The notes under the pieces were generated by a model. That model ran no database searches, was not told the DNA's origin, and was given only the letters and a program-made list of their open reading frames with translations. Below, piece by piece: positions 4,791-64,000 of a stretch of DNA of 64,000 bases. The number at the start of each line of letters is the position of its first letter. Positions within the stretch are counted from its first letter, which is position 1. Origin of the DNA: Pseudomaricurvus sp. (GTDB lineage Bacteria; Pseudomonadota; Gammaproteobacteria; Pseudomonadales; Cellvibrionaceae); the NCBI GenBank assembly GCA_965656525.1, contig CBFHKY010000017.1, positions 7,924-71,923 of the forward strand, written 5' to 3'. Both the position numbers and the translations under genes were made by a program.

Positions 4791-6110
4791 ATGCCAACCA
4801 CTCACTTGACCACATCAGCTCCAGAACGCAATCTGAGACGCTTGGTTGTTATTCGCAGCCTTTTATTGGGCGTGCTCTGCACCTCGTTGATCATCGCATA
4901 CAGCGGGCTGCATCTCGCGCTACCCTACGGCGCGCTAGTGTGGGTGCTGAGCGGCATGACGCTTGCCAGCGTAGCCATTGTCGTACAGCTTAATTTACGG
5001 CAGCGCCCTTCTCAGCGAGCATTTTTTCTGCAATTGCTCCTCGATATTATCGCTCTGAGTTTATTGCTGTTTTTTACCGGCGGCGCCAATAATCCTTTTG
5101 TCCCTTATTATTTGGTCCCACTGTGCATCGCCGCCGCCACTTTACCGTGGTTTTACACTTGGCCACTGCTGATAAGCTCTCTGGTTCTGTACAGCAGTTT
5201 ATTTTTCTTGTATTTGCCTTTGCCAGCCTTATCCCCTCACGCCGCCACCGAGGCTTTACACACCATGCATGGCGGCGCACTGTCTCTAGGCCACACCTCT
5301 CATACCATCAGTTTGCATACGTTGGGCATGTGGATTAATTTTGTGATCAGCGCATTACTGGTGACCATATTCGTAGGTCGTATGGCCAATTCATTGCGAC
5401 AGCAAGATGAGGCTCTCGCACAACTGAGGGAAGAGCAGCTTCGTGATGAACAGTTGATGGCACTCGCCACACTCGCTGCTGGCACGGCTCACGAGCTGGG
5501 AACCCCGCTCACCACCATTCGTACTTTATTGGCGGAACTGCAACAAGACTGCGCCGAAAATACCGTCAACCCCGCAACCCTCAGTACCGATATACAGCTG
5601 CTGCAACATCAAGCAAACCATTGCTCACAAGCACTTCAATCACTGAGCCAACATGCAGGCCACCTACAACAAGGCACAACCCCCAATCAACCCATACGGC
5701 AATTGTGCCAGAGCGTGATCGACGACTGGCTGTTATTACGACCAGAGGTCAGCGCCACCGTTTTGATGCCTGATGAACTGCCTTCACTTGAAGTGGCTTG
5801 GCCAGCCACCATCACACAGGCGATGGGAAATTTACTGAATAATGCCGCCGATGCTTGCCCCAAAGACATTCACGTCGATTTCCACTGGGATCAACGGCAG
5901 CTTACCTTAACACTCCACGATCAGGGTGCGGGCATTGATCCTCAAGTGGCCAATCATTTACACGAACCGTTTGTCACTCAAAAAGGGGAAGGTCGCGGTC
6001 TAGGGCTCTTTCTAACCGACGCTGTGATACGACGATTTGGAGGTCAATTGATGCTAAAACCACATCCAAAGTGCGGTACAATCACGCAATTAACCCTTCC
6101 GTTACATTAA
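4791..6110 (+). CDS. regB: RegB/PrrB/RoxS-type redox sensor histidine kinase
   Basis: Multi-TM N-terminus with quinone-binding GGANNPF, H-box AHELGTPL, N/G boxes (NLLNNA, DQGAG, GLGL); upstream of a RegA homolog. Confidence 0.9.
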   Translation: MPTTHLTTSAPERNLRRLVVIRSLLLGVLCTSLIIAYSGLHLALPYGALVWVLSGMTLASVAIVVQLNLRQRPSQRAFFLQLLLDIIALSLLLFFTGGANNPFVPYYLVPLCIAAATLPWFYTWPLLISSLVLYSSLFFLYLPLPALSPHAATEALHTMHGGALSLGHTSHTISLHTLGMWINFVISALLVTIFVGRMANSLRQQDEALAQLREEQLRDEQLMALATLAAGTAHELGTPLTTIRTLLAELQQDCAENTVNPATLSTDIQLLQHQANHCSQALQSLSQHAGHLQQGTTPNQPIRQLCQSVIDDWLLLRPEVSATVLMPDELPSLEVAWPATITQAMGNLLNNAADACPKDIHVDFHWDQRQLTLTLHDQGAGIDPQVANHLHEPFVTQKGEGRGLGLFLTDAVIRRFGGQLMLKPHPKCGTITQLTLPLH

Positions 6111-54392: not shown

Positions 54393-56234
54393 TCAATGAG
54401 CAGCAGCTGCCATATACGCTCGCCAACCGCCAAACCGAGTGATATCTTCAGCGTCTTCCACACCGTAAGGCTCACAGATAAACCCCGTTACCATCGTCCC
54501 GCTCGATGTTTTTACTTTGCCGATACCCAGCGGTGCCGGAATACCCGCTACAAAACTGCCAAATTGATCCGCCGGTACCGACCAGACTTCCACTTCCAAC
54601 GCCGCGCCGTGTGCCTCATCCATCACTAAACCGGGGCGATAAGGCGGCCCTCCGGCCAATGCATACATGCGATAGATCGGCGCGGTTGTGGTTTTTTCCT
54701 TCAATACCGCCCCGCGTTCAGTAAGCTGCCAGTTCAAAGCCAACCCCTCTAAATGCGCACCACACACCAACACATCAATCGTCATCAGTGGCTGAGTAAT
54801 GGCAACATCAGCGAAAGAGGACGCAAAACTAGACGCGCCCAATGGCAGAGAGAATTGTTTTTGGATACGACGTGCAATCGACAGTAACTGACGATCGGTA
54901 AACTTATCCCCCACCACCGACACCCCAAATGGCATCTTATTACTGGCAATTTGAGTCGGCACAGCCACGGCCGCATAATCCAGAAGGTTCATAAAGTTGG
55001 TGTAATAACCCAGCTGGCTGTTATGCAGGATCGGTTCGGCCAGCATCTCTTGAATGGTAAACGTACGTCCTGCCGTTGGCGTCAGCAGGCAATCCACCTG
55101 TGCCAATTGATCATCACAACGGGTTTTCAATGCTTTTAGGCGATACTGAGCCTTGAACAATTCACTGGCCATGGCTTTGCCGCCGGGCTCAATGATTTCG
55201 CGCACCACGGGAAACATCAGTTCTGGCGTGTCATCAATAAAAGGCTGCGTGGCGATATAGCGCTCGGTCACCCACGGCCCCTCATACAACAGTTTGGCGG
55301 CTTCATCAAATGGGGCGTAGTCCACTTCGACAAACTCAAAACCCTCTCCCGCTAAGGAATTTAGCGTACTTTGGTAAGCTTGAGCATAGGCCTCATCACC
55401 AAAGAACTCTAACTGTGAAGGTGGAATCACACCCACTTTCAAAGGCTCCGCTCTTTCACCATAATGACGGCTCCGGTTTTGAAACGGATTATGACGGCTA
55501 TAAGCATCGCTGGCATCAAAACCTTCGGCAGCCGTCAGTACAGCATTGGCATCATCGGTGTTCAGCGCAAAAATAGTGATGCAATCTAAACTGCGACACG
55601 CCGGCAACATACCGGTGGCCGACAATAAACCAATGGAGGGCTTCACCCCCACCAAGTTATTAAAACACGCGGGAATTCGCCCCGAACCAGCGGTATCCGT
55701 ACCCAGGCTGAAGCTGGCCAAGCCCAGTGCTACCGCAACCGATGACCCCGAGCTAGAACCACCACTGATGTATTCAGGGTTAAAAGAGTTTTTACACGCC
55801 CCCCAAGGCGAACGGGTACCATTAATACCCGTAGCAAACTGATCCAGATTGGTTTTGCCTACAGGAACCGCCCCTGCAGCCAACAAGTTCTGCACCACGG
55901 TCGCAGATGTTTCAGGAGTAAAAGCAAATTCTACACAGGCTGCTGTCGTGGGTATCCCTGCTAGGTCAATATTGTCTTTAATTGCAAACGGGATACCCCA
56001 CAAAGGGTGATCATTGATGTCTTTGTCTTTTAAAGCCGCGAGATAAGGCGATTGTTCAGCCTCCGACAACAGGTGTATCCAAATATTATAATCACTACAA
56101 CTGATCGCTTTTTCGCGAATGTCAGAAAATAAAGTTTCAGGGGTGAGGCTGCCGTCTTGATAGGCCGCACGCAAAGTGGCAATGGATACATTTTTATCAA
56201 CGCTAATGTTTTGAGTTATCGAGTGGGTCATCAT
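54393..56234 (-). CDS. atzF: Allophanate hydrolase
   Basis: FAIKDNID, GKTNLDQFATG, GGSSSGS, GTDTAGSGR; C-terminal VCGAHLEG domain. Confidence 0.95.
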   Translation of the reverse strand: MMTHSITQNISVDKNVSIATLRAAYQDGSLTPETLFSDIREKAISCSDYNIWIHLLSEAEQSPYLAALKDKDINDHPLWGIPFAIKDNIDLAGIPTTAACVEFAFTPETSATVVQNLLAAGAVPVGKTNLDQFATGINGTRSPWGACKNSFNPEYISGGSSSGSSVAVALGLASFSLGTDTAGSGRIPACFNNLVGVKPSIGLLSATGMLPACRSLDCITIFALNTDDANAVLTAAEGFDASDAYSRHNPFQNRSRHYGERAEPLKVGVIPPSQLEFFGDEAYAQAYQSTLNSLAGEGFEFVEVDYAPFDEAAKLLYEGPWVTERYIATQPFIDDTPELMFPVVREIIEPGGKAMASELFKAQYRLKALKTRCDDQLAQVDCLLTPTAGRTFTIQEMLAEPILHNSQLGYYTNFMNLLDYAAVAVPTQIASNKMPFGVSVVGDKFTDRQLLSIARRIQKQFSLPLGASSFASSFADVAITQPLMTIDVLVCGAHLEGLALNWQLTERGAVLKEKTTTAPIYRMYALAGGPPYRPGLVMDEAHGAALEVEVWSVPADQFGSFVAGIPAPLGIGKVKTSSGTMVTGFICEPYGVEDAEDITRFGGWRAYMAAAAH

Positions 56235-56295: not shown

Positions 56296-59200
56296 CTATT
56301 GATCTGGCTGAGCAATCACGACTAGGGCTTGCCCCGCGTGCACACGCTGCCCATCAGCCAGCAACACATGTGTGACCGTGCCCGAGGTGGTTGCTTGCAG
56401 AGGGATTTCCATTTTCATGGATTCCAATACCATCAATACCTCACCCGCTTTCACTTGGTCGCCAACACTGACGTTGGTCTGCCACACACTGCCGGATACA
56501 GAGCTGTCCATCACCGCGCTGTCCTCGGGCCAGTCCACTTCTGTACTAACGGTAACCTGCTCTTGCGCTTCAAAATTAAATTGCCCTGTGGCGTGCCACT
56601 GTGCCAGCTCTTCCTCGAAAGCGTGGTGACGAGACTGACGAAACGACTCGATGCCCTCTTCGTGCTGTTGCAGGTAGGCTTGATATTCTGAAAGGCTGAA
56701 ACTGCTGTCTTCAATGCGCAGCGGGTATTGACCCAAAGGAAATTGTTGCCGGATATCGGCCAACTCTTGATGGCTGACTTCATAAAAACGGATCTGATCA
56801 AAAAAGCGCAGTAACCAAGGCTGCTCAAACTCTTTTGTTTGACGATAACGGTTCCACATTTGCAGTGTGCGACCCACAAACTGGTAACCACCTGGGCCTT
56901 CCATGCCGTACACGCAAAGATAAGAACCACCAATCCCCACGGAGTTCTCGGCTGTCCATGTGCGCGCTGGGTTGTATTTGGTGGTCACCAAACGGTGACG
57001 TGGGTCCACTGGTGTCGCAACCGGTGCGCCCAGATACACATCGCCCAAGCCCATCACCAAGTAAGACGCATCAAACACTATTTGCTTTACATCATCGATG
57101 CTGTCGAGCCCATTAATACGGCGAATAAACTCAAGATTACTGGGGCACCAAGGTGCATTTTTACGTACCGATTGCTCGTACTTTTCAGTAGCCAGGCGAC
57201 ACGCTTCGTCATCCCAAGACAACGGGATATGCACAATTCGCGAAGGCACTCGTAGCTCATCCAGTTGCGTAATCAGGTAGCGCTCGCCTTGCTGTAGGTG
57301 CTCAATCAACCGATCACAAGACAATACCTGACTGTCGTAATGCACTTGCAACGATCGTATGCCTGGCGTCAACTCGCGGATACCTGTTTGTGTATGTTGC
57401 TGCAGCCACTGCATTAACGCATGAGCACGAAAGCGCAATTCAATATCCAGTATTTGCTCGCCGTATTCCACCAACAAAAAATGATCGCCCGCAGCACGAT
57501 AAATGACATTCACTCCAAATTCGGCTTGCGTTAGATGAGAAACAATTGGTGATATTAATGGTGCGCTCTGATAGCTTGACGCTTGCATCTGTAACTGCGT
57601 CACACGATGAATTTGATCCGCTTCCAGTTGCACGGCATCGTTCATTAACACGGGTACAAAACGAAGAGTATCGCCGGCTCGCAACTGACCGAGTTTCCAT
57701 AGGTCGGCCTGAATGACCGTTGCTGGACACACAAAACCACCTAATGAGGGGCCATCTGGGCCAAGAATCACGGGCATGTCGCCAGTGAAATCCACAGTAC
57801 CAAATGCATACGCATTGTCGTGAATGTTAGAAGGGTGTAGGCCTGCTTCGCCACCGTCTTTGCGAGCCCATTCTGGTTTCGGGCCAATCAAACGCACACC
57901 TGTGCGACTGGAGTTGTAATGCACCTCCCACGCGTGCTCAAAAAATATTGCCATATCGCTGTTAGTGAAAAAATCTGGCGCACCATGAGGCCCGTAGATC
58001 ACTCGCAGCTCCCAGTGATTTTGGATACTTGGTAACAACTCCTGAGCCAATGTTTGCGCTTCAACGGGGCTGGCAGAATCGTTCAGATGCAACACATCAC
58101 CGGTGCGTAGGGCTCGGCCATTGTGACCCCCAAACTGGCCTAAGGTGAATGTGGAGCGCGACCCTAAATACGCTGGGCATTGGACCCCACCGCGTACACA
58201 AAGATACGTTCTGGCACCTTGATCTTTAATACGGCCTAATGTCAGTGTTTGACCAGCTTTAATGTCAATCACCGTCCATGATTCAACAGGGACATCATCC
58301 ACACTGGCATCTATGGCGGCACCGGCAATCACCACTTGCGATGCGGTACTGAACAGTAATGTGGGCCCTTGCATGGTGATTTCTAAACCCGCGGCGCTTT
58401 CTTCGTTCATCAATAAGCGATTGGCTAAGCGGAAAGAATAACTATCGAACGGGCCTGACGGCGGTACCCCTACACTCCAATAACCAACACGAGAAGGAAA
58501 ATCTTGAACGGTGGTTTGTGTTCCGCCTTGCAGCACATCCATACGTGCTGGGGCAAAGGCAAAATCATTCAGGTAGCGGGTTGTCACCTGTCCTGCGATC
58601 AACGTCGTATCACAAATCAACGCTCTTAAATACGCAAGGTTGGTTTCAGTACCATAAAGCTGAGTTTCATTCAGTACACGCTGTAATTTTGCCAAGGCTT
58701 GTGTGCGATCGGCGTCGTGCACGATCACCTTGGCGAGCATGGGATCAAAATAGGGTGGAACCTCAATCCCCGACTCAATCCAGCGATCGATTCGCACACC
58801 GATGTTTTCAGACTGCGAAGTTTCGGGAAAACACACATGGCTGAGTAAGCCCGGACAAGGCTGGAAATCTCGATAGGGGTCTTCCGCATAGATGCGCACT
58901 TGCAGTGCATGCCCCTGTGGTTTTAATTGCGCTCTTTTTTCATCTAGGGCGATACATTCACCAGCCGCCAAACGCACCATCCACTCGACAAGATCGACGT
59001 CGTACACCATTTCGGTAACGCCGTGCTCAACTTGCAAACGGGTATTCACTTCTAAGAAATAAAAGTCGCTGGTATCGGCATCTACAATAAATTCTACGGT
59101 GCCAGCATTGCGATAGTTAACACTAGCCAACAACGCTTCTGCTGTTGTATGCAGTTGCTGACGTACGTTATCGGTTAAATTAGGTGCAGGGCATTCTTCA

Positions 59201-59913
59201 ACCACTTTTTGGTTGCGTCTCTGACTGGAACAGTCTCGCTCGCCAATGGCAAGGGCACCACCAGTGCCGTTACCAAACACTTGCACTTCGATATGTCGCG
59301 CACGAGCAATAAACTTTTCAATAAACACCCCGTCGTCCGCAAAGTTATTCGCTCCCAGACGTTTGACCGAATCAAAAGCACCTTCCAGCTCTGCTTGCGT
59401 GTGGCATAACTGCATACCAATGCCGCCACCGCCAGCTGTACTTTTTAACATCACGGGGTAGCCAATTGATGAGGCCGCCAAAACGGCCGCATTCAAATCA
59501 GTGAGCAGGTCAGTACCGGGTGACAGTGGCACTCCCGCATTTTGCGCTAATTCGCGCGCTTTGTGCTTTAAACCAAATACCTGCATCTGCTCAGCAGTTG
59601 GGCCAATGAACGCGATCCCCTGAGCTTCACAACGTTTTACAAATGCTGAATTTTCACTCAAAAATCCATAGCCCGGATGAATCGCTTGCGCCCCTGACTG
59701 CTTGGCAATGGCCAGTATTTTATCCACATCCAAATAAGTTAGTGCCGCCGACCCCTCCCCTAGACTGTAGGCTTCATCGGCGTGTCGAACGTGTAAACTC
59801 TCTGCATCGCTTGACGCATACACCGCGACAGTGCCGACACCCATTGAGTGAAGCGTACGAATGATTCGTGTGGCAATAGCACCACGGTTGGCAATCAAAA
59901 CTTTGCTAAACAT
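56296..59913 (-). CDS. uca: Urea/guanidine carboxylase (biotin-dependent), probably guanidine-preferring
   Basis: Biotin carboxylase (IANRG, FLEVNTRLQVEH), carboxyltransferase (HPSNIHDNAY, GGYQFVGRT), biotinyl ESMKM. Confidence 0.95.
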   Translation of the reverse strand: MFSKVLIANRGAIATRIIRTLHSMGVGTVAVYASSDAESLHVRHADEAYSLGEGSAALTYLDVDKILAIAKQSGAQAIHPGYGFLSENSAFVKRCEAQGIAFIGPTAEQMQVFGLKHKARELAQNAGVPLSPGTDLLTDLNAAVLAASSIGYPVMLKSTAGGGGIGMQLCHTQAELEGAFDSVKRLGANNFADDGVFIEKFIARARHIEVQVFGNGTGGALAIGERDCSSQRRNQKVVEECPAPNLTDNVRQQLHTTAEALLASVNYRNAGTVEFIVDADTSDFYFLEVNTRLQVEHGVTEMVYDVDLVEWMVRLAAGECIALDEKRAQLKPQGHALQVRIYAEDPYRDFQPCPGLLSHVCFPETSQSENIGVRIDRWIESGIEVPPYFDPMLAKVIVHDADRTQALAKLQRVLNETQLYGTETNLAYLRALICDTTLIAGQVTTRYLNDFAFAPARMDVLQGGTQTTVQDFPSRVGYWSVGVPPSGPFDSYSFRLANRLLMNEESAAGLEITMQGPTLLFSTASQVVIAGAAIDASVDDVPVESWTVIDIKAGQTLTLGRIKDQGARTYLCVRGGVQCPAYLGSRSTFTLGQFGGHNGRALRTGDVLHLNDSASPVEAQTLAQELLPSIQNHWELRVIYGPHGAPDFFTNSDMAIFFEHAWEVHYNSSRTGVRLIGPKPEWARKDGGEAGLHPSNIHDNAYAFGTVDFTGDMPVILGPDGPSLGGFVCPATVIQADLWKLGQLRAGDTLRFVPVLMNDAVQLEADQIHRVTQLQMQASSYQSAPLISPIVSHLTQAEFGVNVIYRAAGDHFLLVEYGEQILDIELRFRAHALMQWLQQHTQTGIRELTPGIRSLQVHYDSQVLSCDRLIEHLQQGERYLITQLDELRVPSRIVHIPLSWDDEACRLATEKYEQSVRKNAPWCPSNLEFIRRINGLDSIDDVKQIVFDASYLVMGLGDVYLGAPVATPVDPRHRLVTTKYNPARTWTAENSVGIGGSYLCVYGMEGPGGYQFVGRTLQMWNRYRQTKEFEQPWLLRFFDQIRFYEVSHQELADIRQQFPLGQYPLRIEDSSFSLSEYQAYLQQHEEGIESFRQSRHHAFEEELAQWHATGQFNFEAQEQVTVSTEVDWPEDSAVMDSSVSGSVWQTNVSVGDQVKAGEVLMVLESMKMEIPLQATTSGTVTHVLLADGQRVHAGQALVVIAQPDQ

Positions 59914-59925
59914 GATCAACCTGAG

Positions 59926-59967
59926 CTGGGTCGTCCCAGTGTCTGTTGCAACGGTGGCCGTCCACCG
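59926..59967 (-). ncRNA. Guanidine-II (mini-ykkC) riboswitch
   Basis: CGGTGG-ACGG-CCACCG, 12-nt linker, CTGGG-ACGA-CCCAG: two perfect stems with ACGR loops, 12 nt before the carboxylase ATG. Confidence 0.9.
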
Positions 59968-59996
59968 AGGTGTGTGTAAAAAACGGTGTTACAACG

Positions 59997-60665
59997 TCAA
60001 TCCCAGATGAAATATTCTACCGGTGTCGGGTTGTAACCATTACAAGGGTTGTTCAATTGTGGGCAGTTGGAAATCAATACCACGACATCCATCATGGCCC
60101 TCAGCTCGACGTATTTTCCTGGGGCAGAAATGCCGTCGGCAAAGGTTAGCTCTCCTGCAGAGGTCACTGGAACGTTCATAAAGAAATTAATATTGTGGGA
60201 AATATCACGTTTATGGATACCGTATTCCGGATGCTCAGCAATGGCCAGCATCCAACTATCGCGGCAAGCGTGCATACAACGCTTTTCGAGGTCGTAACGC
60301 ACAGTATTACTTTCCGTGGCACAGGCACCACCGAGTGTATCGTGTCGGCCGCAGGTATCCGCCACAATTTCCAACATCACATTGTTGAGGTTTGACCGAA
60401 GCTTCGACCCCGTAGTGAGATAGACGTTACCTTGCTCTCGAATGGTATCCGTTGCGCTGTAACGCTCGGCAGGATGCCCGGCTGCATAAAACAGTGTGTC
60501 TGCCGCTTGGTTTCCTTCCGTATCTAAAATACGAAAGGTCTGACCCGCATTAACAACGCCGATAAAATAGTCACCCGCGTCTACCGTTCCGCGATTCACA
60601 GCGTTCACAGGGTCAAGTGCAGAAAACTGTAAGGCGCTTTGCTCTATCGTCTTATTTTGCAACAT
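59997..60665 (-). CDS. DUF1989 urea-carboxylase-associated protein (UAAP2; carboxyguanidine deiminase subunit)
   Basis: [51 protein letters not shown]. Confidence 0.9.
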
Positions 60666-60668
60666 ACA

Positions 60669-61403
60669 TCAAGCTCCCAAACCTAAATGATACAGTGCGT
60701 TATTTTGAAAGCCGCGGCTGTTTTCAGGACGAAAGTTTTTACAGAAATCATCATCGCTTACAGAATGAGCCACGCCCAGTTCCAGTTGAATGTCTTTTCT
60801 TGGGTAGTGTTCAGTTTGATCCAGTGGGTGTGGGCAAGTGTGCAACAACACCAAGGTGTCCATTTCAAACCGCAGCGTCACTTGACTGCCTGCAACAGCA
60901 CTGGATGCATCAAGCTGCATATCACCACAATCATTAACGGCAACTTTACTGAACCAATTCATATTGGCCGCCATATCGGCCGGCCCCAAACCGTACTTAA
61001 CCAACTCAACTAAAAACGCATCATTGCCATTTTGATACCAGCGGTTGTGATCATTCTGGTAATCCCGTTTCCCCCAGCGCGCTTTAATATGACTGGCGTG
61101 AGAATTACCACAAACCGTTTCATGCCAACCAAATGTGTCGTCCACAATAGACGCAAAAATTCGCCCCATATCTGAATATAAACAGTTGCCCTTACTCAGC
61201 TTAAACGTATGCTGACATTTCAGAGTATCGGGGGCATTGTAGCGCTCCAATAAGTTTTCTGGGTTGTAAAACAACATGCCTACGTTAGCACCGCCCGCTA
61301 TATCTGTTAGGCGTAAAACAGTGCCTTTGCGAACTCTTAAAGACCAGTGTGCACCAGACGATACGGTGGTGGTGTAATCCATTGAATGGATTATGTCACT
61401 CAT
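60669..61403 (-). CDS. DUF1989 urea-carboxylase-associated protein (UAAP1; carboxyguanidine deiminase subunit)
   Basis: WSLRVRKG..LRLTDIAGGANVGMLFY, ERYNAPDTLKCQ, CPHPLD; start after a GGGAG RBS. Confidence 0.9.
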   Translation of the reverse strand: MSDIIHSMDYTTTVSSGAHWSLRVRKGTVLRLTDIAGGANVGMLFYNPENLLERYNAPDTLKCQHTFKLSKGNCLYSDMGRIFASIVDDTFGWHETVCGNSHASHIKARWGKRDYQNDHNRWYQNGNDAFLVELVKYGLGPADMAANMNWFSKVAVNDCGDMQLDASSAVAGSQVTLRFEMDTLVLLHTCPHPLDQTEHYPRKDIQLELGVAHSVSDDDFCKNFRPENSRGFQNNALYHLGLGA

Positions 61404-61419
61404 AATTAACTCCCATAAA

Positions 61420-62214
61420 TCACACTGCTGGCTCAACAATAGGCCGCAACGTGTCATCAATTTCTTTGTAAATAGAATGATCGGTTTTGCCCACCGATAG
61501 ATCGTAGGTAATCCCTGCGCCAAAGCGCTGAGGGGAATGTGGATCGTGTCGCAACTTATCAAAGACCCAAAGACGAGTTCCAAGATAAAACCCTTCTTTC
61601 AAATCGTGCGTCACCATAAAAACCGTCAGGTTATGCTCTTTCCACAAGCTTAAAACTAACTCATGCATATCAGCCCGAATGCCAGGGTCTAGCGCACCAA
61701 AGGGTTCATCCAACAACAAAATTCGTGGTCGACCTAACAACGCCTGTGCGATCGCTAAACGCTGCTTCATGCCGCCAGAAAGTTCATGTGGGTATTTATG
61801 CAAGGCGTGGCTCAAACCCACTTGATCCAATATCGCTGTCGCCGCATCACGGGCTTCACGCCGCGCACGCCCAAACAAATACCCCGTGACACCTTTACGC
61901 TCAAAACCTTTAGTTGCCATCACGTTTTCAAGCACCGTCATATGCGGAAAAACAGAGTATTGCTGAAACACAATGCCGCGATCTGGCCCTGGCTCATCTG
62001 GGATTGGTTTGCCATCCAAAAGAATTTCACCCTTACTTGGCGTTACCGTACCCAGCAGCATATTCAGAAACGTACTTTTCCCGCAGCCAGATGTCCCCAC
62101 TAGCGTTACGAATTCACCTTCGTTTACGGTGATGCTGAGGTTCTCCAACACCACGTTATCACCGTACTGCATCCAAACATTATTGACCTGTAACATAGGT
62201 GCCGATTCCGTCAT
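61420..62214 (-). CDS. ABC transporter ATP-binding protein (guanidine/urea uptake)
   Basis: GTSGCGKST, LSGGMKQR, DEPFGALDPGIR. Confidence 0.92.
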   Translation of the reverse strand: MTESAPMLQVNNVWMQYGDNVVLENLSITVNEGEFVTLVGTSGCGKSTFLNMLLGTVTPSKGEILLDGKPIPDEPGPDRGIVFQQYSVFPHMTVLENVMATKGFERKGVTGYLFGRARREARDAATAILDQVGLSHALHKYPHELSGGMKQRLAIAQALLGRPRILLLDEPFGALDPGIRADMHELVLSLWKEHNLTVFMVTHDLKEGFYLGTRLWVFDKLRHDPHSPQRFGAGITYDLSVGKTDHSIYKEIDDTLRPIVEPAV

Positions 62215-63032
62215 CACTTGTCCCCCTGTGCATACCAAGGAAACAGCCAACGATTCAGCTCGCGCAGCCCCCAATCAATAAAAAAGGCCAGCAGTGTAAT
62301 CCAAGCCACGTACGGTAAGATCACATCCATTGCCATGTAACGACGCACCAAAAAAATCCGGTACCCAAGACCATCCGTAGCCGCCACGGCTTCAGCGGCA
62401 ATCAAGAATAACCAGCCGGCACCCAGCGACAACCGAATCGCATCAAACAGTTTAGGCATGACCTGTGGCAGCAGGACGCGCAACATAATTTGCGACGTAC
62501 TAGCGCCAAGTGTTTGTGCTTTTACCAGTTGCTCCATAGGCACTTCGCGAGTTCGAGCAAGAATATCGCGAGCAATAAAGGGCGCGATACCAATGGCAAT
62601 CAGCGCCACTTTAGACACTTCGCCCAATCCAAAAACGATGAATAAAATGGGCAGTAAAGCTAGCGGCGGAATCAATGACACCACGGTTAACAGCGGTGAA
62701 AGCCAAGCAGAAAATAACGGCAAGCCGCCTGCTAGCATACCGATGATAAGGCCAAAAATGGCGGCGATACCGACCCCCATAGCCAAGCGACTTAAGCTGC
62801 TGGCAGTGTCTTGCCAAAAAAGGTAGTCACCTGAACGCTTACTCGGCTCGAACGCCATTCGCGTAAAGCCATCACTCAGCTGCGAAAAACTGGGGAGTAA
62901 CTTATCATTCGGATTTTCTTTTAAACGCTCGTTGGAATTCACCGCGTATAAGATGATTAACAATACAAACGGCAGTAGCCCTAAAAACAGTTTCAACGAT
63001 TTTTTCGGTGTTTGATTGATCAGCTTTTTCAT
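62214..63032 (-). CDS. ABC transporter permease (guanidine/urea uptake)
   Basis: IPPLALLPILFI, WLFLIAAE, GLGYRIFLVRRY. Confidence 0.92.
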   Translation of the reverse strand: MKKLINQTPKKSLKLFLGLLPFVLLIILYAVNSNERLKENPNDKLLPSFSQLSDGFTRMAFEPSKRSGDYLFWQDTASSLSRLAMGVGIAAIFGLIIGMLAGGLPLFSAWLSPLLTVVSLIPPLALLPILFIVFGLGEVSKVALIAIGIAPFIARDILARTREVPMEQLVKAQTLGASTSQIMLRVLLPQVMPKLFDAIRLSLGAGWLFLIAAEAVAATDGLGYRIFLVRRYMAMDVILPYVAWITLLAFFIDWGLRELNRWLFPWYAQGDK

Positions 63033-63193
63033 GTTTCTTCTTCATATCCGAGGATTGATTGAAACACTCTTGCCGCTACTGTGAGATCGAAGTATTGCAA
63101 TGGTCGACAGTAGCCACTAAAGCGATGGCCTTGCTCTGTAAATGGATAAGCTGGGAGCCATGTTCGCGCCCCCAGACTTATCACGATGGAATC

Positions 63194-64000
63194 TTACAGT
63201 TTGCCGTCTTCAGCCATTTGCATGTAAGTGGGGTCGAAGCGAAATTGGACATTACTGCTATCACCGAAAGTGCCCGCAGGCATTTCAATACCGATGAATC
63301 CAGCATCCGGTGCACCATCCCCCAACAAACCGTGCTCAAAAGAAAATTCAGCAACGTGTTCCATGGTTTTCAACAAGGCTTCGCTGTTAGTAAGCTCTAG
63401 CGCAGACGCAGGGGAATAAAACATTTCAGTGCTCGCTAGCTGAGACTCATAACCCGCCAAATCGGTGCCAGAAGCTTCGGCCATATAGGTTTTGGCTTCG
63501 GTAGCTGCAGCATTGTCGCCGCTCATGATAGACATGATTTCATACCAAGCGCCCACCAATGCCTTACCCAGTTTAGGGTTTGCTTTAAGTGTGTCGGTAT
63601 TCACTACCAGCAGGTCGATAATCTCACCAGGAATTTGTGAAGAATCAAATACCTTATGGCTATCCGGCATGGATTCGATTTCGCTCAGCAGTGGATTCCA
63701 AGTCGCAACAGCCGTCACATCATCGGTGCCATAAATCGCCACCATATCAGCGTCAGAAGTGTTGACCACCGTTAAGTCTCTTTCGCTTAGACCAACACCA
63801 TCCAGACCGCGCGCCAGTAAGTAATGAGAGACACTGAGTTCAACTAGGTTGACACTTTGACCTTTGATATCAGCCAATGACTTTTTGCCTTTCAAGACAA
63901 CGCCATCATTACCGTTAGAAAAATCACCCACGACCAACGCAGTACTATCCACACCACCGGCCGCAGGAATTGTCAGGGCATCCATATTGGTCATAGTGCA
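63194..64000 (-). CDS. ABC substrate-binding protein ('putative urea ABC' / guanidine-binding); 5' end outside the window
   Basis: TNMDAL, DFSNGNDG, LVELSVSHYLLAR, TWNP, FDSSQIPGEIIDL. Confidence 0.88.
   Translation of the reverse strand, partial: CTMTNMDALTIPAAGGVDSTALVVGDFSNGNDGVVLKGKKSLADIKGQSVNLVELSVSHYLLARGLDGVGLSERDLTVVNTSDADMVAIYGTDDVTAVATWNPLLSEIESMPDSHKVFDSSQIPGEIIDLLVVNTDTLKANPKLGKALVGAWYEIMSIMSGDNAAATEAKTYMAEASGTDLAGYESQLASTEMFYSPASALELTNSEALLKTMEHVAEFSFEHGLLGDGAPDAGFIGIEMPAGTFGDSSNVQFRFDPTYMQMAEDGKL

Follow-up and report, generated by a model that had tools for sequence, protein, structure and literature searches.

A predicted guanidine-II riboswitch ahead of the carboxylase gene in a guanidine-assimilation operon of a marine gammaproteobacterium

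The guanidine carboxylase pathway comprises a carboxylase, the carboxyguanidine deiminase CgdAB, and an allophanate hydrolase (PMC12186494, PMC12508155). A split layout of guanidine-I and guanidine-II riboswitches was described by Sherlock 2017, as cited in Reiss & Strobel 2017 (PMC5558903), and a 2025 review gives the same layout for Raoultella, Erwinia, and Klebsiella (PMC12186494). Vreelandella boliviensis has a guanidine-I (Gd-I) riboswitch in the leader and an internal guanidine-II (Gd-II) riboswitch "between cgdB and gca", "like in several other bacteria" (Sinn 2025, PMC12508155). In this species the whole operon is induced on guanidine, Gd-I has a KD of 44 µM and is specific for guanidine, and in-line probing of Gd-II gave KD values of 93 µM for guanidine and 83 µM for methylguanidine (PMC12508155). 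The affinities for guanidine in this pair, the only one measured for such an operon, differ just two-fold (44 vs 93 µM; PMC12508155). Why the same ligand is sensed twice is a question that was explicitly left open by Sinn et al. 2025 (PMC12508155).

We analyzed a stretch of 64,000 nucleotides from Pseudomaricurvus sp. that we call the window, which corresponds to positions 7924-71923 of contig C17. The block from 54.4 to 64.5 kb is predicted to be a complete, doubly riboswitch-controlled guanidine-assimilation operon in an uncharacterised marine gammaproteobacterium. We consider it very likely that a guanidine-II riboswitch controls translation initiation of the carboxylase inside this operon, which is headed by a guanidine-I leader.

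Pathway genes and the guanidine-I leader

The pathway set is complete, with all of its genes adjacent and on one strand and with matches to TIGR02712, TIGR03424, TIGR03425, TIGR02713, and TIGR03427 that are all above cut-offs. From these family assignments the gene cluster is that of the guanidine carboxylase pathway, with guanidine rather than urea as the predicted substrate. The parts of the operon are as follows.

64305-64455 in window-equivalent coordinates (C17:72228-72378; L004 729-879), minus strand: guanidine-I aptamer (RF00442, 76.1 bits)
63194 to beyond 64000, minus strand: uca-type ABC substrate-binding protein, cut by the window end and starting at window-equivalent 64234 (TIGR03427, 434 bits)
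62214-63032, minus strand: ABC permease (NCBIfam nitrate/taurine-type ABC matches)
61420-62214, minus strand: ABC ATPase (NCBIfam nitrate/taurine-type ABC matches)
60669-61403, minus strand: first DUF1989 gene, UAAP1, cgdA-like (TIGR03425, 320 bits)
59997-60665, minus strand: second DUF1989 gene, UAAP2, cgdB-like carboxyguanidine deiminase subunit (TIGR03424, 327.6 bits)
56296-59913, minus strand: guanidine carboxylase gene, annotated as urea carboxylase, 1205 aa (TIGR02712, 1842.6 bits)
54393-56234, minus strand: allophanate hydrolase gene (TIGR02713, 766.5 bits)

The stop of the permease gene and the start of the ATPase gene overlap by 1 nt. The initial annotation had taken the genes ahead of the internal switch to be uptake genes; this does not hold for the two DUF1989 proteins, which are carboxyguanidine deiminase and act after the carboxylase. 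The hydrolase gene begins 61 nt past the carboxylase stop and has its own Shine-Dalgarno (SD) sequence (UAGGAUGG), so that any control of the hydrolase by the guanidine-II switch would be indirect.

Other features were observed in and around these genes. The 161-nt gap between the binding-protein and permease genes (63033-63193, minus strand) contains two strong stem-loops (-56.8 kcal/mol, z = -3.1, with 0/200 shuffles as stable) and had no match when compared with Rfam. As modeled, these stem-loops are probably a stabiliser or an attenuator that sets the ratio of binding protein to permease. Codon 57790-57792 (minus strand) of the carboxylase gene encodes Asp in the context ...AYAFGTVDFTGD..., and a cobalamin riboswitch (RF00174; 1402-1581, minus strand; 48.7 bits vs a cut-off of 31.5) is the sole Rfam match in the window above its gathering score.

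The suggestion that a guanidine-I switch lies beyond position 64000 was borne out by a single RF00442 (Guanidine-I, ykkC) match in the assembly, which is full length (1-107), exceeds the cut-off of 63 bits, and is in the leader of the operon. The aptamer is approximately 300 nt outside the window end and terminates approximately 70 nt upstream of the ATG of the binding-protein gene. Folding of window-equivalent positions 64234-64455 showed that the 3' part of the aptamer, GGUUACACGG, is able to pair with the downstream sequence CCGUGUAAC, which is followed by CUUUUG. In this model the alternative helix and CUUUUG form a terminator-like expression platform for the guanidine-I leader. A simple terminator scan of the leader did not pick up the GGUUACACGG/CCGUGUAAC helix; a leader without a terminator was rejected because folding gave this long alternative helix and then CUUUUG. 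Three conserved guanidine-I core segments were located approximately 3.6 kb upstream in 67/81 loci, a count that comes from a regex proxy with an Infernal check in the window's genome only; many of the loci in which they were not located lie on truncated contigs.

The element between cgdB and the carboxylase gene

The gap that separates the cgdB-like gene from the carboxylase gene contains the following features.

59914-59996, minus strand: gap between the stop of the second DUF1989 gene and the carboxylase ATG, 83 nt
59952-59967, minus strand: P1 hairpin of the guanidine-II aptamer, CGGUGG / ACGG loop (59961-59958) / CCACCG, 6 perfect pairs (sequence, RF01068 alignment, covariation)
59940-59951, minus strand: linker UUGCAACAGACA, 12 nt (sequence)
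59926-59939, minus strand: P2 hairpin, CUGGG / ACGA loop (59934-59931) / CCCAG, 5 perfect pairs (sequence, RF01068 alignment, compensatory changes)
Between P2 and the carboxylase ATG, minus strand: tail CUCAGGUUGAUC, which contains AGGU (sequence)
59919-59922, minus strand: SD core AGGU, 3 nt past P2 and 5 nt ahead of the ATG (sequence)
59913-59911, minus strand: carboxylase ATG (conserved MF.KVLIANRG start in homologues)

The list of open reading frames placed the start of the carboxylase at TTG 59919. This start was rejected because all homologues begin with MF.KVLIANRG at the ATG, and the gap is therefore 59914-59996. The TGA of the cgdB-like gene is at 59999-59997, P1 begins 29 nt further downstream, and the carboxylase ATG is 12 nt past the end of P2. 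Two perfect hairpins with ACGG and ACGA loops had been reported in this gap, and we found them as described on the minus strand; they do not "fill" it, as had also been stated, since they occupy only 42/83 nt. Both GG-ACGG-CC and GG-ACGA-CC are present, so two G-C pairs close each tetraloop. The double core motif GGACGRCC-N8-38-GGACGRCC has 1 match in the 64-kb window when both strands are searched and occurs in 0/100 dinucleotide-preserving shuffles, which excludes chance.

Guanidine-II (mini-ykkC) riboswitches are recognized by two tandem hairpins with ACGR tetraloops (PMC1950547, PMC5558903), two conserved G-C pairs per tetraloop with 16 conserved nucleotides, and a linker of 7-40 nt (PMC5558903). 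They are found near the SD of the regulated gene, with 90% of them within 33 nt (PMC1950547). The element in the window has tandem ACGR hairpins with two G-C closing pairs per loop, a 12-nt linker, and a P2 hairpin that ends 3 nt ahead of AGGU. Association with guanidine genes (carboxylase, Gdx/SugE, ABC importers) is seen in the TIGR02712 carboxylase gene directly downstream of the element, and in the alignment of homologous copies the stems covary and the loops are fixed. On these sequence features, the two-hairpin element before the carboxylase gene is a genuine member of the guanidine-II class.

The assignment made in the initial annotation also stood in a comparison with the guanidine-II covariance model (RF01068), which aligned end to end with the element (27.0 bits, E=0.0011 in a 301-nt search) and had its top match in the 3.4-Mb genome here (E=0.0028); where it fell short was the Rfam gathering score of 32 bits, which is an operational annotation threshold and not a structural definition. 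Because of this cut-off a default Rfam scan of the window missed the element, and it was found at a relaxed threshold. The shortfall is largely because P1 has 6 pairs vs 8 in the model. Among 40 related genomes, RF01068 matches ranged from 24.6 to 43.9 bits, and in three genomes from the same genus the element, again at the cgdB-carboxylase junction, scored 28.4, 34.5, and 34.5 bits. The gathering score thus splits true members, and routine annotation is expected to under-report guanidine-II elements that are linked to carboxylase genes.

Using the UAAP2 (cgdB-like) protein as a query we collected 80 loci with 73-87% amino-acid identity from marine Gammaproteobacteria, including Marinobacterium, Neptuniibacter, Thalassolituus, Thiodiazotropha, Porticoccus, Zhongshania, Microbulbifer, Marinomonas, Halopseudomonas, Cellvibrio, Alcanivorax, Gilvimarinus, Vibrio, and others. 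The carboxylase gene directly follows cgdB in 79/80 loci, and the MF.KVLIANRG start is likewise conserved in 79/80. Exactly two hairpins with ACGR loops occur within the last 130 nt before the carboxylase ATG in 75/79 loci. As for the others, the second hairpin of L056 has one stem mismatch, no hairpin was found before the carboxylase ATG of L034, and in L076 (~5930-5945) and L077 (~5800-5815) the second loop is ACGU instead of ACGR within the hairpin GGGACGUCCC, a perfect palindrome. Judged by sequence, the ACGU hairpins may be a degenerate or variant guanidine-II P2. The cgdB-carboxylase gap varies from 41 to 300 nt across the relatives and the end of P2 is always 4-24 nt from the ATG, which ties the element to the start of the carboxylase gene and not to the end of the upstream gene. 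In 70 related elements the linker measures 10-23 nt, and there are relatives with AGG, GGAG, or AGGU at the SD position. All four loop combinations were found among the relatives, with the ACGG/ACGA combination of the window occurring 11 times.

An ungapped alignment of orthologous elements was built from 63 distinct hairpin pairs. Pairing was observed in 93.0% of cells vs 75.4% in shuffles, and the covariation score was 0.445 vs 0.129 shuffled (0/500 shuffles reach it), with slid-partner controls at or below 0.16. Compensatory changes were found in 9/12 pairs, including 5/6 pairs of helix 2; column pair 6/15, for example, is UA in 39 elements, GC in 12, AU in 6, and CG in 4. Helix 1 (P1) is paired in 97% across the 63 elements. 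Both loops have an invariant ACG and an invariant adjacent G-C pair, with A or G as the fourth loop base, and the second closing pair is G-C in 97-98%. The selection of hairpins required the three loop-adjacent pairs and not the outer pairs, so that only the outer pairs provide an unbiased test of covariation, and these do covary.

The P1 hairpin has a further property. Across 45 distinct loci whose P1 is of the CAGYGG type, identity is 94.5% for the 12 nucleotides of the stem and approximately 72% for the flanks of P1 (a 3-nt 5' flank of CUU/CCU and first five linker nucleotides of UCGUA/UUGUA). The same 45 loci show 62% identity in the outer P2 pairs, which covary freely, and 42.5% at third positions in the first 40 codons of the carboxylase gene. 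The consensus for P1 and its flanks, CYU-CAGUGG-ACGR-CCACUG-UCGUA, extends across many genera (L005-L084, e.g. L019, L048, L063), and the copy in the window (59940-59970) is a divergent version of it, CCU-CGGUGG...CCACCG-UUGCA. In this alignment, P1 and its flanks show much more sequence conservation than base pairing needs, an odd detail of the element. The ACGA loop has its complement in UCGU of the linker, and CUUC/CCUC resembles the anti-SD of 16S rRNA; an alternative ACGAC/GUCGU hairpin could hide loop 1 and free this anti-SD mimic at the 5' base of P1. We are doubtful that the marine-gammaproteobacterial elements linked to the carboxylase form a distinct subclass in which P1 and its flanks are under selection for an ACGAC/GUCGU OFF state or an extra partner. 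If they did, the P1 module would be a defined OFF state or a site for an extra binding partner not described for the guanidine-II class.

Some relatives have additional features. Four genomes of the same genus (G003, G004, G006, and G007; loci L107, L108, L111, and L113) carry a guanidine-II element ahead of a gene for a Gdx/SugE-like exporter. A second, exporter-linked copy of this kind was not found in the window's genome, which is 90.8% complete and contains only the carboxylase-linked copy. A genome of the same family (G016) has a guanidine-II element identical to that of L081 (Gilvimarinus agarilyticus JEA5). Large perfect palindromes that are REP-like or terminator-like occur upstream of P1 in L049, L057, L075, L043, and L077, which are relatives from Cellvibrio and Marinimicrobium with gaps of 180-300 nt. 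In those palindrome-bearing species the carboxylase gene may be a separate transcription unit.

Predicted translational control of the carboxylase

In the model for this class each ACGR loop binds guanidinium, the loops kiss through C-G pairs, and translation is turned ON; the proposed anti-SD is the linker or the 5' base of P1 (PMC5558903, PMC9094411). Other guanidine-II members have been shown to bind two guanidinium ions cooperatively and to form the loop-loop kissing complex in a ligand-dependent manner (PMC5558903, PMC12508155). By analogy with published structures and probing of these family members, each ACGR loop of the Pseudomaricurvus element would bind one guanidinium ion, and the C and G of the loops would pair between P1 and P2 to form a kissing complex. 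This complex would fix P1 and P2 head to head, exposing the SD and the start codon. In the ligand-free RNA, the SD region GGUUG would be paired either with CAAC of the linker or with CGACC from the loop and 3' arm of P2. An action on translation of the carboxylase fits both the published model and the anchoring of the element 4-24 nt from the start codon (PMC5558903, PMC12508155). The operon would then need guanidine twice, for read-through of the guanidine-I leader and again for guanidine-II-dependent translation of the ATP- and biotin-dependent carboxylase. The idea in the initial annotation that uptake would come first and the costly carboxylase later is a reasonable proposal that comes close to published comments, but it leaves out of account that CgdAB, encoded ahead of the switch, act after the carboxylase, and the two-fold difference in the affinities of the V. 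boliviensis pair is a further caveat on it.

We examined by folding how the SD might be masked. The structure with P1 and P2 only had a predicted energy of -17.1 kcal/mol. Adding linker:SD pairing, with CAAC:GUUG and GA:UC flanking P2, gave -21.1 kcal/mol. A structure with P2 opened and the SD masked by CGACC (59933-59929):GGUUG (59921-59917), with AGACA:UGUUU over the start codon and UUGC:GCAA, gave -21.8 kcal/mol. The two SD-masked states are nearly isoenergetic, and GGUUG is approximately 90% paired in the predicted ligand-free ensemble. Since this holds in either ensemble, an SD-masked OFF state that is released by the kissing complex is plausible. The 101-nt region around the element folds no better than shuffles (z = -0.48), a result that is expected for a 42-nt motif and is uninformative.

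The complementarity that had been pointed out between the SD region AGGUUG and both the linker CAAC (59948-59945, complementary to GUUG) and an upstream ACCU exists in the sequence. The masking suggested from it found no comparative support. In RNAduplex comparisons of the SD tail with six upstream segments (5' flank, P1 arms, linker, and P2 arms), no conserved anti-SD was detected, with energies equal to those of shuffled tails (mean z -0.19 to +0.38). Nor did shuffling the linker or the 5' flank raise the predicted accessibility of the SD (0.496 with the native sequence vs 0.478 and 0.485). Both conservation tests were thus negative, and we accept neither CAAC in the linker nor the upstream ACCU as the anti-SD. 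Because no conserved masking partner was detected, the SD-unmasking step rests on the family model, and unmasking by guanidine at this element is inferred by analogy.

These results bear on whether the aptamer acts on translation at all. It could act mainly on mRNA level, via Rho-dependent polarity or RNase protection, or as a ribosome standby site, with translation shifting only secondarily. This would agree with the lack of a detected conserved anti-SD and with the prediction that P1 and P2 are formed at approximately 87-91% even without ligand; furthermore, riboswitches can show a tight link between control of translation and mRNA levels (PMC12508155), and for guanidine-III an additional action via RNase E protection is reported (PMC12186494). 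However, in every relative the position of the element is tied to the SD and start codon rather than to the end of the upstream gene, P2 is not followed by a U-tract terminator, and the models published for this class place the control at translation (PMC5558903, PMC9094411). We therefore judge an action mainly on mRNA level or standby to be quite improbable. A more radical explanation is that the hairpins arose by chance or are intergenic structure of a generic kind (for example a REP-like sequence, an mRNA stabiliser, or a protein-binding site), unrelated to guanidine. The RF01068 score below the gathering threshold and the overall fold energy might be taken in this sense, but the loops are invariant while the outer stem pairs covary over 63 distinct sequences, and the element occurs exclusively together with a gene of the guanidine pathway. 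Together with the hairpins of the relatives and the absence of the double core motif from the shuffles, this effectively refutes a generic or chance structure, to which we assign almost no probability.

A different question is which transcript carries the element. The carboxylase and hydrolase genes could be transcribed as a separate unit, from a promoter within cgdB or directly behind it, and the guanidine-II element would then be an ordinary 5'-UTR switch. Two riboswitch-controlled gene groups have been described (PMC12186494), and the large palindromes in the 180-300 nt gaps of L049, L057, and L075 could terminate upstream transcription. By contrast, the gap in the window is 83 nt only, and the V. 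boliviensis genes are treated as one operon with an internal Gd-II, where the proteome shows the whole set induced together (PMC12508155). In a scan of 59500-61500 we found no minus-strand sigma-70-like promoter match, consensus scans being weak evidence either way, and no terminator between cgdB and the carboxylase gene. The sole "terminator" match, CGACC/GGUUG, overlaps P2 and the SD and was read as a possible OFF-state helix rather than a terminator. A separate unit is thus unlikely here, if somewhat less so than an effect mainly on mRNA level. The simplest reading of the sequence is that the carboxylase gene is predicted to be co-transcribed with the upstream genes from the guanidine-I leader.

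Comparison with described systems

The dual-riboswitch layout has been known since 2017 and was probed biochemically in 2025, and the copy in the window is an ordinary new example. Its novelty is low because this layout is already published, and it carries little weight as a discovery. The dual arrangement is near-universal (~95%) in the set of approximately 80 operons from many marine genera, making this set a good system for asking why one ligand is sensed twice.

The locus is most readily compared with the V. boliviensis operon, with which it shares the Gd-I leader, the ABC importer, cgdA/B, and a Gd-II element of the same motif class right before the carboxylase gene. Unlike that operon, the one in the window is without mgdH/mgdL between the carboxylase and hydrolase genes, its Gd-II stem and linker sequences differ, and it comes from a different host, placed at the level of Cellvibrionaceae. 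It also resembles the split operons of Enterobacterales described in 2017, where guanidine-I precedes the importer and carboxyguanidine deiminase genes and guanidine-II precedes the carboxylase and allophanate hydrolase genes. In contrast to the elements of those hosts, the element in the window is one of a group from marine Gammaproteobacteria in which the sequence of P1 is strongly conserved. Finally, guanidine-II riboswitches before gdx/sugE (E. coli sugE and P. aeruginosa; PMC5558903, PMC9094411) have the same ACGR hairpins, linker, and downstream SD and the same translational ON kissing model. Unlike the element described here, they are in the true 5' UTR of a small exporter gene.
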